Source: an uncultured virus (IMG/VR IMGVR_UViG_3300009785_000024)
Taxonomy: Duplodnaviria > Heunggongvirae > Uroviricota > Caudoviricetes
IMG/VR virus record: IMGVR_UViG_3300009785_000024
Direction: 5' to 3' (one strand)
DNA: 20,000 nucleotides
Under the pieces are notes generated by a model. It did no database searches, was not told the origin of the DNA, and was given only the letters and a program-made list of their open reading frames with translations. This document shows, in pieces, positions 17,796 through 20,000 of the stretch; the first letter of the stretch is position 1, and each line of letters starts with the position of its first letter. Position numbers and translations under genes: made by a program.

Positions 17796-18089
17796 TTATG
17801 CAAATGGTGTGTAACCTTGTTCAGCAGCTGTAGTATCATCTTCTGATATTATATTCAAAACTTCTGGACAATAATGTTTCATCATACTTTCAACTCCCTG
17901 TTTGAGAGTTAGTTGAGACATTGCACACCCAGCACAACTACCTGCCATTAATAACTTTAATGTGCCATCTTCATCAAACGAAATATACTCAATCTTACCA
18001 TTGTGAGCTGCAACACTAGGTGCTACTTTATCTGCTAGATGAAACTTAATTTTTCTAATTGTTTCTTCGTGTTCTTCTTTCGTAATCAT
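17796..18089 (-). CDS. nifU: NifU C-terminal domain (Nfu-type) Fe-S cluster carrier, stand-alone single domain
   Basis: Start reassigned to ATG 18089 (SD AGGA). KVAPSVAAHNGKIEYISF..GTLKLLMAGSCAGCAMSQLTLKQGVESMMKHYCPEV carries the Nfu G-S-C-x-x-C motif. Confidence 0.9.
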   Translation of the reverse strand: MITKEEHEETIRKIKFHLADKVAPSVAAHNGKIEYISFDEDGTLKLLMAGSCAGCAMSQLTLKQGVESMMKHYCPEVLNIISEDDTTAAEQGYTPFA

Positions 18090-18165
18090 AAAAACTTTCC
18101 TATAAATTTTAATAACCTGTTTAGTAATGCAAGACACACAAGACCAATTGTTTTTAAAGTTTCTT

Positions 18166-18963
18166 TCACTCTGTTGGGTCCTTCATTATCATGTTTGGTA
18201 TATTATCATCTTGTAAATCTAATTTAACAGGATTGACATTTTGTTTTTGTACATTTTGTTCTAGTACATAGTTACCACTTATACTAATTCTTTCAAAGTC
18301 TTTCCAATATGAACCAACCATATGTTCTAATGCAGCTGGGAAAACTAACATCAAACCTTTATATGGTTTAAGACCAAAACTATTCATTTGTAATTGAGAT
18401 ATCTTTTCGCCATAATGAAATACTATTTGACCAGCACTATTAGCGTTAGTCACAGGCACACCTTCTGTAAAGATGTCTTCATCTATATCACCAAAGATAA
18501 CAAAACTAAAAAGACCTGTATGGTCATGTAATGGATTATAATCACCTGCTTGTTGGAAGTTAATCCACAATTGTTGTAATCGTAATGCACCCATGCCACC
18601 AGATTGTCCCATCATCATATTTGATATGTTAGGCCAACCTTCGCCATAGTTAGATTGTAGTATCTCAAAAAATTCAAATACTTTTTGTACTATTGCTTGG
18701 TCTGCTTGATTTCTGATTTTGTTGTTACCGTTATTAAACGGATAAAGAATACTTGTGCCTTGTTTCATGTTGCCAGCAAGTTGGTCTCTGTGGTCTAGTT
18801 TTTTATCGTCTCTTGTACGCTGACCTTCTTCAATCAACATATCAACAATCTTCTCGTCTAGTTCACAACGATAGACTGGTGGACCAAATGGATATAAGAC
18901 CTCGCCATTAATAGACGGATGAACCATTTGTGGTAGTACGGTGTTTTCTCTATGTTTAGTCAT
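18166..18963 (-). CDS. Putative 2OG-Fe(II) oxygenase (phage TIGR02466 / 2OG-FeII_Oxy_5-like)
   Basis: 265 aa. WINFQQAGDYNPLHDHTG.FSFVIF; G.M.VFPA.LEH.V; ERISISGN: double-stranded beta-helix with HxH...H iron ligands and an R-x-S 2OG-binding motif. Confidence 0.85.
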   Translation of the reverse strand: MTKHRENTVLPQMVHPSINGEVLYPFGPPVYRCELDEKIVDMLIEEGQRTRDDKKLDHRDQLAGNMKQGTSILYPFNNGNNKIRNQADQAIVQKVFEFFEILQSNYGEGWPNISNMMMGQSGGMGALRLQQLWINFQQAGDYNPLHDHTGLFSFVIFGDIDEDIFTEGVPVTNANSAGQIVFHYGEKISQLQMNSFGLKPYKGLMLVFPAALEHMVGSYWKDFERISISGNYVLEQNVQKQNVNPVKLDLQDDNIPNMIMKDPTE

Positions 18964-19021: not shown

Positions 19022-19252
19022 TATGCTGTGTTCTTTTAATGTGTCTAAAAGAAACTTGTTTTTAATTTGTAAAACAAGATTTTGTTTTTCTAATATTGCT
19101 ATCTTCTTATCTAAATCGTTAGGTCCTCGTTCATCATCTAATATCATTTGTAGTTGTTTCTTTAATAATTCCATTTGATACTGATAATCTTTATTCATAG
19201 GAACACGATTATAATAAAGCTCGTCTTCTGCTTTCAGTCTGTCTACATTCAT
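19007..19252 (-). CDS. Hypothetical coiled-coil protein (81 aa)
   Basis: Start reassigned to ATG 19252, 1 nt after the iscA stop, with SD GGAG in the iscA 3' end; heptad LDKKIAILEKQNLVLQIKNKFL. Confidence 0.7.
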   Translation of the reverse strand: MNVDRLKAEDELYYNRVPMNKDYQYQMELLKKQLQMILDDERGPNDLDKKIAILEKQNLVLQIKNKFLLDTLKEHSILTLD

Positions 19253-19253
19253 T

Positions 19254-19580
19254 TTATACTCCAAAACTTTCACCACAACCACAACTTGATGTTGCGTTGG
19301 GATTTTTTAATTCTAAAAATGACCCAAATATCTCTTTTCGATATTCTATGGTCATGCCACTTAAATAGAGTAAGTTAGATTTTGCAACAAGTAGTTTAAA
19401 GTTATCCTCTTCAAAGACGGTATCGTCTTCATCTGGAGAGTCTTCAAACTTCCAATCGTATTTAAAACCTGCACAACCACCACCTTTAACTTCTAAACGA
19501 ACATAATCTTTATTATGTGAAGAAGTCAATTCAGCAAGATGTGCTTTTGCGTTGTCTGTTAAATTAATTAAATTACTCAT
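19254..19580 (-). CDS. iscA: A-type Fe-S cluster carrier, IscA/HesB/ErpA family
   Basis: 108 aa. I.LTDNA..H; VRLEVKGGGCAGFKY; YL.GMTIEY....GS.....NPNATSSCGCGESF with all three conserved Cys. Confidence 0.95.
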   Translation of the reverse strand: MSNLINLTDNAKAHLAELTSSHNKDYVRLEVKGGGCAGFKYDWKFEDSPDEDDTVFEEDNFKLLVAKSNLLYLSGMTIEYRKEIFGSFLELKNPNATSSCGCGESFGV

Positions 19581-19585
19581 ACTAC

Positions 19586-19592
19586 TATTTAG
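19586..19592 (-). promoter_or_regulatory. Late promoter variant CTAAATA, 5 nt before the iscA ATG (probable leaderless mRNA)
   Basis: Minus strand reads CCTAAATA-GTAGT-ATG; no SD at normal spacing. Confidence 0.55.
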
Positions 19593-19612
19593 GGGAGACT
19601 TAACGCCTCCCC
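19592..19612 (-). terminator. GC-rich hairpin between the 64-aa ORF and iscA (terminator-like or 3'-stabilising)
   Basis: GGGGAGGC-GTTAA-GTCTCCCC: 8-bp stem with one G-U in an AT-rich context. There is no canonical U-tract after it. Confidence 0.5.
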
Positions 19613-19629
19613 AAAACTAGATTTTGCTA

Positions 19630-19824
19630 TCAAATCTTATTGTTTGATTTTACGATTTTATGTCCAAGTACTTTGCCTTTGTTCACACCATTGGAAATAG
19701 TGTAACCAGAAGTACCGTTACCATTTATATCCACTTCTTTACGAGAAGCACAAAGCGCTTTTTCCTTACGCTCTATTTCTTTCTTCTTGCTATAAGTGGA
19801 GAGTAAATAAGTATGTCTGTTCAT
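19630..19824 (-). CDS. Small basic protein (64 aa) under glutamine-riboswitch control; function unknown
   Basis: Strong SD GAGGAGGG (19836-19829), ATG 19824; Lys/Arg-rich; directly downstream of the riboswitch. Confidence 0.85.
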   Translation of the reverse strand: MNRHTYLLSTYSKKKEIERKEKALCASRKEVDINGNGTSGYTISNGVNKGKVLGHKIVKSNNKI

Positions 19825-19847
19825 AACACCCTCCTCTATTAAAGTTA

Positions 19848-19902
19848 GGTGCGTTCCTTCAGGCGATTGCCTTACTTCCGACCATTGTCTGGTTGAACGA
19901 AT
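19848..19902 (-). ncRNA. Glutamine riboswitch (glnA RNA motif / glutamine-I class)
   Basis: Minus strand: AUU-CGUUC-A-ACCA-GACAA-UGGU-CGGAAGUAA-GGC-AAUC-GCC-UGAAG-GAACG-CACC. Three-way junction with P1 CGUUC/GAACG, P2 ACCA/UGGU, P3 GGC/GCC and the GGAAGUA.../...GAAG E-loop junction characteristic of the glnA motif. Confidence 0.9.
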
Positions 19903-19907
19903 AGTAA

Positions 19908-19915
19908 TATTTATA
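19908..19915 (-). promoter_or_regulatory. T4-type late promoter (TATAAATA) directly upstream of the riboswitch
   Basis: Exact TATAAATA on the minus strand; predicted start near 19902, which would make the aptamer the extreme 5' end of the transcript. Confidence 0.8.
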
Positions 19916-20000
19916 CAAGAGACTTACATAAAACTAAACAAAGAGATATCATAGAGTATTCGCCCCTATAACTTCGATACAAAGAGTCGCCCTCTCCCTA

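Follow-up and report, generated by a model that had tools for sequence, protein, structure and literature searches.

The DNA analysed here is a stretch of 20,000 nt (the window) from the uncultured virus IMGVR_UViG_3300009785_000024. It carries on its minus strand a cassette that is probably a late-promoter-driven translational ON switch for a 64-amino-acid (aa) protein in a pelagimyophage-like phage of the T4 type. In the direction of reading, the cassette is made up of the motif TATAAATA, a spacer of 8 nt, a three-stem RNA matching the glutamine riboswitch family RF01739, a Shine-Dalgarno sequence (SD), an open reading frame (ORF) of 64 codons, and a GC-rich hairpin. A sequence-only reading of the same DNA had listed these elements, and every one of them is present on the minus strand where it had placed them.

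By sequence and predicted structure, the three-stem RNA is a genuine type-1 (glnA-type) glutamine aptamer and would be expected to bind glutamine. Using cmscan, it was matched to RF01739 over model positions 1-53 of 53, at 52.9 bits (gathering score 35; E 2.8e-09), by which the covariance model of Rfam bore out the earlier proposal of a glnA-motif RNA. No other family passed its gathering score anywhere in the 20 kb of the window, and the whole virus record holds exactly one match to RF01739. The three-helix junction is present with the conserved sequence CGGAAGUA in J2/3, the segment joining P2 and P3, and with the GAAGG segment ahead of the 3' strand of P1. In 84 related sequences, P2 is paired in 100 % and P3 in 92.1 %, and both helices covary. 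The nucleotide directly 3' of P1, C19851, is kept in at least 90 % of the same sequences. In the solved structure of such an aptamer, glutamine binding is accompanied by insertion of the J2/3 guanine G23 at the base of P1, where it pairs with C60 (PMC11477058). From its position, C19851 would be the equivalent of C60.

The virus record from which the window was taken measures 119,869 bp and is estimated to be 82 % complete. The window encodes T4-type baseplate genes. Its gp6-like protein is 63.0 % identical to that of Pelagibacter phage Mosig, 53.3 % to that of HTVC008M, and 51.8 % to that of the OM43 phage Melnitz, while identity to the listed cyanophages does not exceed 39.3 %. These identities argue that the virus is a pelagimyophage-like, T4-type phage of streamlined marine heterotrophs rather than a cyanophage, with a host group that is SAR11-type and not cyanobacterial. 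A blastn search in distant mode with positions 19400-20000 gave no match in 50,697 phage records.

The motif TATAAATA is, to judge from its placement, the late promoter motif upstream of the late genes of this phage. It occurs four times in the window against 2.70 expected, a count that is not above chance (57 of 200 shuffles reach four or more). All four copies are on the coding strand, in intergenic spacers and 19-83 nt 5' of a start codon, and three of them have baseplate genes downstream. In the whole record, 28 of 30 copies lie on the main coding strand. Even with about 93 % of the record taken up by coding sequence, 21 of the 30 fall between genes, and 20 are both intergenic and no more than 120 nt upstream of an ORF on the same strand. 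On the coding strand, 20 of 28 copies (71 %) are intergenic, compared with 142 of 648 (22 %) for the 55 further words obtained by permuting its eight letters. A PHROG scan that took in 141 of the 164 ORFs listed in the record revealed a gp55-like late sigma factor (phrog_234, E 2.3e-64) and a gp33-like late co-activator or late promoter regulator (phrog_254, E 1.9e-19). The earlier suggestion of a T4-type late promoter at the predicted 5' end was thus substantiated by genes for the factors that would use it. A scan for sigma-70 promoters gave no site on the minus strand ahead of the aptamer; TATAAATA has no -35 element. Upstream of the cassette no co-directional ORF is directly adjacent. The nearest ORFs are two small ones on the opposite strand, followed by a gp5-like gene, which fits a cassette that has its own promoter. 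Taking the geometry of T4 late promoters to apply, transcription would presumably start near position 19902, 3 nt before P1, and the aptamer would then form the 5' end of the mRNA.

The coupling of promoter, aptamer and ORF, for which the sequence-only reading had suggested a survey, recurs in related viral contigs with fixed spacing. A survey with the exact aptamer-core pattern, including an exact P1, identified at least 119 viral stretches. Together with the window, 123 cores were obtained, of which 116 have the 5' strand of P1 and an ATG-started ORF within 90 nt; these and all further counts of surveyed loci are among the matches listed. Of the 116 viral cassettes, 40 have the motif NATAAATA in the 30 nt that precede P1, an enrichment of about 30-fold over the 0.012 per locus expected from the remaining sequence of these loci. 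In 36 of the 40, the motif is separated from P1 by 6-9 nt. The peptide family of the window (family-1) comprises 23 loci with the window included. Seventeen of them have NATAAATA, and 16 of these TATAAATA, at a gap of 7-9 nt; five others have CTAAATA at the same place, and one is without upstream sequence. TAAATA stands at this place in all 22 family-1 loci that have upstream sequence. The ORFs downstream of the viral cores belong to several unrelated small families. The motif is present in 9 of 10 loci of a Mosig-like family of 51 aa and in 7 of 7 of a family of 31-35 aa, while none of 37 cassettes of the YRG/ITDNPFYP group and none of 14 of the Melnitz-like group carries it. From these frequencies, the wiring to a late promoter is not accidental; certain cassettes conserve it, and it is not shared by all phage glutamine switches. 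Cassettes without TATAAATA (L010, L023, L027, L038, L042, L054 and similar ones) stand before YRG-type peptides or 32-aa peptides beginning with MKTKNNWQL. They have GTTACA-N17-TATAAT-like hexamers that end at P1, and an SD hairpin that differs from that of the window (CUUUAC/GUAAAG). The hexamers suggest that the same switch is wired to sigma-70-type promoters in other phages.

The same core pattern applied to cellular genomes, one per species, gave at least 121 stretches. The cores are mostly cyanobacterial and ahead of YRG/DUF4278-like ORFs. In marine Alpha- and Gammaproteobacteria, namely SAR116, SAR86 and further single-cell genomes, they are located ahead of ORFs whose N-terminal parts read as ammonium transporter-, glutamine synthetase- or glutamate synthase-like. 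Some marine proteobacterial cores (within L137-L249) occur in tandem, with two to three copies, and have long platforms unlike the phage one. One genome record (L231) contains a platform of the phage type with a Melnitz-like peptide. The protein family of the window was downstream of none of the 121 cellular cores listed.

Downstream of the aptamer, the expression platform is predicted to be a hairpin that sequesters the SD. Its outer helix joins a 5' arm from G19852, the last base of P1, via C19851 to U19847 with a 3' arm from G19831 to U19826, and its inner helix joins 19844-19841 with 19837-19834. The minimum free energy (MFE) fold and the centroid fold each contain both helices, which between them occupy most of the SD. 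In a MAFFT alignment of 84 distinct sequences, in which the fixed pairs correspond to columns 57-62 and 99-104, the five fixed pairs of the sequestering helix are formed in 79.9 % of the cells. Changes on both sides were seen at four of the five pairs, one of which is C-G in 45 sequences, U-A in 16, U-G in 4 and A-U in 1. The covariation score of the whole structure was 0.306, compared with 0.138 after shuffling; none of 500 shuffles reached 0.306, and the score collapsed once the partners were slid by 1-3 columns. Of 88 distinct platforms, 61 can form an uninterrupted helix of 5 bp or more that starts no further than 3 nt from P1, against 39 % with exchanged arms, and in 55 of the 61 its 3' arm overlaps an SD-like tetramer. 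No terminator-like site was found in a scan of the 23 nt between the aptamer and the ATG, which favours translational control. In the MFE fold, the 5' strand of P1 (19895-19899) pairs with UGAAC at 19819-19823 in the start codon region. GAAC follows the AUG in only 5 of 22 family-1 loci; this pairing is probably incidental and was dropped from the model.

Cyanobacterial gifB-type leaders listed in a genome scan are laid out alike, P1 being followed immediately by CGCCUC...GGAGGCG. According to Klahn et al. (2018), a short helix joined to P1 is melted in the glutamine-induced transition; in Synechocystis, the ribosome-binding site (RBS) is paired by C68 together with the bases after it, and gifB is switched on in vivo (PMC6212724). 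By analogy with that switch, the one in the window is expected to act in the ON direction. Late in infection, RNA polymerase directed by gp55 and gp33 would initiate from the TATAAATA promoter, some 3 nt short of P1, and the aptamer would be the first element of the mRNA. Without glutamine, C19851-U19847 would pair with G19831-G19827 and, together with the inner helix, bury the SD, leaving the 64-aa ORF poorly translated. With glutamine bound, the J2/3 guanine, inserted at the base of P1, would take C19851 as its partner and so compete with the sequestering helix and open it. The SD would be freed for ribosomes to load, and the product would be made only late in infection and at high host glutamine. 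The elements concerned are collected in Table 1.

Table 1 Features of the cassette and of the genes that follow it; positions are those of the window
Feature	Position	Strand	Details	Basis
T4-type late promoter -10 element	19908..19915	minus	TATAAATA	motif location in sequence
Type-1 glutamine riboswitch aptamer	19848..19901	minus	RF01739	cmscan
P1	19899-19895 / 19856-19852	minus	CGUUC/GAACG	sequence
P2	19893-19890 / 19884-19881	minus	ACCA/UGGU	sequence
J2/3	19880-19873	minus	CGGAAGUA	sequence
P3	19872-19869 / 19864-19861	minus	AGGC/GCCU	sequence
Junction segment	19860-19857	minus	GAAG	sequence
SD-sequestering hairpin (predicted expression platform)	19826..19852	minus		MFE and centroid folds, covariation
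Shine-Dalgarno sequence	19830..19836	minus	GAGGAGG, 5 nt before ATG	sequence
64-aa basic protein ORF	19630..19824	minus	ATG 19824, stop TGA 19632-19630	ORF list; phrog_32989
GC-rich 8-bp hairpin	19592..19612	minus	GGGGAGGC 19612-19605 / GUCUCCCC 19599-19592	fold
IscA/HesB-like Fe-S assembly gene	19254..19580	minus	starts 11 nt after hairpin	PF01521, E 1.2e-20
2OG-Fe(II) oxygenase	18166-18963	minus		family match
NifU-like gene	17796-18137	minus		family match

Several points weigh against this mechanism. In the fixed columns, 20 % of the sequestering-helix cells are unpaired, mostly in cassettes of another platform type, and the invariance of P1 in the survey is uninformative, having been imposed by the search pattern. 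Four metatranscriptome runs from three studies contain the stretch or near relatives of it, as assembled contigs from which starts, ends, strand and levels are unreadable, in which coverage gaps are meaningless and to which DNA carry-over may have contributed. The end of one exact contig lies 11 nt upstream of where transcription is predicted to start, and other contigs begin further upstream. In addition, P1 and the SD hairpin can coexist in a model of the MFE type, and the linchpin pairing of the J2/3 guanine removes no more than one or two pairs at the outer end of the hairpin, so that four outer and four inner pairs could persist. As only these outer pairs overlap with the linchpin, the size and even the sign of the response are uncertain. 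The same aptamer might then act with the opposite sign, a glutamine-stabilised P1 stacking on the adjacent and compatible SD hairpin to turn translation OFF, or might not switch at all, the hairpin keeping expression low throughout. In the related glutamine-II class, the SD is placed in a ligand-stabilised pseudoknot. We nevertheless consider an OFF switch or a mute leader unlikely, since the type-1 class activates gifB in vivo with the same helix running from the conserved C (PMC6212724) and the design is kept across cyanobacterial and phage leaders. Several contigs from the RNA libraries (runs X1 and X2) match over only 39 nt, from 16247 to 16285 of L254, which is 19822-19860 of the window, and then diverge on both sides. 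The shared part covers the 3' strand of P1, the platform and the start codon, and in one of these contigs a Melnitz-like peptide follows. The samples thus also contain other cassettes built on this platform.

The hairpin that follows the ORF folds, with its flanks, at -20.9 kcal/mol (z -4.19), and none of 200 shuffles folds as well. It has the GC-rich stem-loop of an intrinsic terminator, while the stem is followed by UAAAUAGUAGU and not by a U-tract; a terminator scan of positions 19200-20000 gave no sites. It is therefore no canonical terminator, and may stabilise the 3' end or terminate transcription weakly. The cassette had been described as a complete transcription unit. Promoter, aptamer, ORF and hairpin are all there; its completeness was not upheld at the 3' end, where the hairpin is without a U-tract and the next gene starts 11 nt further on. 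For these two reasons, read-through from the cassette into the IscA-like gene is likely in the window. The closest relatives (L072 and L112) have the same U-less hairpin and the same IscA-like neighbour. The IscA/HesB-like, 2OG-Fe(II) oxygenase and NifU-like genes, together with four radical-SAM genes elsewhere in the virus record (66504-76032; phrog_1802), resemble an Fe-S supply module for phage radical-SAM enzymes.

The cassette could on these grounds be the leader of a longer late operon, in which the switch would tune the module of IscA-like, 2OG-Fe(II) oxygenase and NifU-like genes via translational coupling or mRNA stability. No TATAAATA precedes any of the next four genes on the same strand, and RNA-library contigs cover the ORF, the hairpin and the IscA-like gene, spanning the whole stretch in two of the four runs, both of one study. 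Single transcripts are, however, not provable from such contigs, and sequestration of the SD acts on the first ORF only. Elsewhere in family-1 the unit is followed by canonical U-tract terminators (L013, L116), strong hairpins, a fresh TATAAATA or a tRNA, and by different genes, from which it follows that the conserved, mobile unit is promoter, aptamer and ORF, with or without the hairpin. A switch aimed at the downstream module therefore seems improbable to us. In seven family-1 loci (L034, L035, L055, L084, L085, L092 and L102), the ORF is directly followed by another copy of TATAAATA together with a conserved stretch that contains two strong hairpins. Searching Rfam with that stretch gave only a faint tmRNA-like match in L084 (12.2 bits, gathering score 47), and a tRNA-His is located nearby on the opposite strand in three of the seven. 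The stretch may be an unclassified small RNA driven by a late promoter.

That TATAAATA is an AT-rich coincidence and that an early, middle or upstream promoter drives the cassette without late gating, as might be read from its chance-level count in the window and its absence from the 37 YRG/ITDNPFYP and 14 Melnitz-like cassettes listed, some of which have sigma-70-like hexamers, is highly improbable in view of its spacing and enrichment in the 40 motif-bearing cassettes, the TAAATA of all 22 family-1 loci with upstream sequence, its genome-wide intergenic specificity and the late factors encoded by the phage. A late-promoter-driven ON switch remains our preferred interpretation.

The regulated protein matches phrog_32989 with E 3.9e-14, its residues 3-52 aligning with profile positions 2-52 of 54; no family was matched in Pfam or NCBIfam. 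Using tblastn, homologs were found in 25 phage records, 24 of Pelagibacter phages and one of an uncultured phage. A large protein collection yielded 34 homologs, all unnamed or 'hypothetical', and a profile search 177 representative clusters at E of 0.001 or below. In the alignment, the basic N-terminal part varies and the core, EVDINGNGTSGY...NKGKVLGH, is strongly conserved. AlphaFold2 predicted a confident helix for residues 3-27 and left the rest poorly defined (mean predicted local distance difference test score, pLDDT, 69.8; residues 32-37 below 50). At four pelagiphage loci that encode homologs (HTVC168P, 027P, 019P and 008M), there was no Rfam match at E up to 1, which shows that the switch is not a fixed companion of the protein family.

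The sequence-only reading had likened the system to gifB and its product IF17, an inactivating factor of glutamine synthetase. For the protein this analogy failed: an IF17/DUF4278 identity was rejected because the window protein matches no family and neither any of 22 distinct family-1 peptides nor any of 29 alignment members matches DUF4278. That domain was matched by 21 of the 104 cassette peptides listed, three of them above the Pfam cut-off, and hhalign gave a probability of 0.7 % for kinship between the 64-aa family and viral YRG/DUF4278-like peptides. Kinship with the Mosig-type 51-aa family was likewise discarded (hhalign probability 0.1 %), as was DUF7196, which three of 22 family-1 peptides matched with 17-19 bits against a cut-off of 27 and which was not reproduced in 29 database homologs.

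Of 19 longer representatives scanned, four metagenomic ones (P0041, P0077, P0068 and P0181) have an S-adenosylmethionine decarboxylase domain on the N-terminal side of the conserved core. One such fusion protein was found on nine contigs, the longest of 91 kb. The fusion is a lead, from domain composition, towards polyamine metabolism. The decarboxylase family PF02675 is absent from the 82 %-complete virus record. Four other long hits have truncated N-terminal pieces of unrelated enzymes, NTP transferase, HPPK, LpxD and GT2, and may be gene-calling artefacts or chimeras. The family profile had no match in five marine genomes with an aptamer core, nor in 151 genomes from the order to which one of the five belongs. 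Used as a trial marker for SAR11, SAM-V matched neither these five genomes nor the controls.

Our best guess is that the protein is a small, partly disordered binder of a host enzyme of nitrogen or polyamine metabolism. A wider idea, which we put forward as speculative and doubtful, is that it is a glutamine-gated late effector that docks on such an enzyme, and that phages have built a viral 'nitrogen-status regulon'. S-adenosylmethionine decarboxylase would be a candidate target because of the natural fusions, while glutamine synthetase would be one by functional analogy. If a docking effector exists, polyamine and nitrogen flux for DNA packaging could be matched to host nitrogen status. If the regulon exists, unrelated micro-proteins of at least seven recurrent families would have been placed repeatedly behind one glutamine switch by marine phages, with lineage-specific timing through late promoters in some families and sigma-70-like ones in others.

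Should the preferred interpretation hold, the cassette would be a two-input gate in a lytic phage, in which the late sigma factor and host glutamine are read by a phage RNA without a regulatory protein. SAR11-type hosts and their phages, often limited by nitrogen, dominate the surface ocean, and a sensor of host nitrogen status encoded by the phage would offer a handle on nutrient-dependent outcomes of infection. The cassette is short (about 325 nt) and amenable to in vitro work, and sister cassettes are available in the cultured pairs Mosig / HTCC1062 and Melnitz / H5P1.

Among known systems, the leader of gifB (IF17) of Synechocystis sp. PCC 6803 is the closest in design. It shares with the window RF01739, the conserved C directly 3' of P1, a helix from that C that pairs the RBS, translational control of a small basic protein, and a proposed ON direction (PMC6212724). 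The promoters differ, that of gifB being cellular and controlled by NtcA and that of the window being of the T4 late type with a leader predicted to start right at P1. The regulated proteins differ as well: the window product is not DUF4278/IF17-like, and its link to glutamine synthetase is only an analogy. The SAR11-type heterotrophs that are the likely host group also set the window apart from the cyanobacterial gifB. Glutamine-II RNAs (Downstream-peptide, RF01704) of marine picocyanobacteria are glutamine-sensing leaders before very small ORFs too (PMC2864571; PMC6212724). They form a different class with a pseudoknot, described for picocyanobacteria only and with DUF4278-like ORFs, and the window matches RF01739 and not RF01704.

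The sequence-only reading had called a metabolite-gated late gene unusual for a lytic T4-like phage; the presence of glutamine riboswitches in this group was already in print. Buchholz et al. (2022) reported glutamine riboswitches in Melnitz, Mosig, ten pelagimyophage metagenome-assembled viral genomes (MAVGs) and five GOV2 contigs (PMC9004378), and T4-like cyanophages have been noted to carry one (PMC9964418). In the former paper, the Melnitz riboswitch was interpreted as controlling the transfer-messenger RNA (tmRNA), with speculation on lysis timing, and late promoters are mentioned only in the methods (PMC9004378). Both the class of the switch and its occurrence among these phages are thus known, and its wiring and target were not found in print; a search in which subscription journals were not included gave no paper on late-promoter linkage or on small regulated ORFs of phage glutamine riboswitches. 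As in the window, RF01739 is matched in Mosig (50.0 bits) and Melnitz (52.8 bits). In Mosig, the aptamer follows CATAAATA and precedes Mosig_00116 of 51 aa. In Melnitz (MZ577097.1, around 46398-46567; L130 1499-1668), its place is the 3' edge of the ssrA annotation, and downstream comes an unannotated 32-aa ORF (MTLYQQWCY...) behind an SD hairpin almost identical to that of the window; the ORF annotated there instead, of 33 aa, runs on the opposite strand. Neither the 51-aa nor the 32-aa peptide groups with the 64-aa family. These layouts argue for correcting the printed assignment of the tmRNA as the Melnitz target, and for a set of conserved, unannotated micro-proteins as the real regulated genes.

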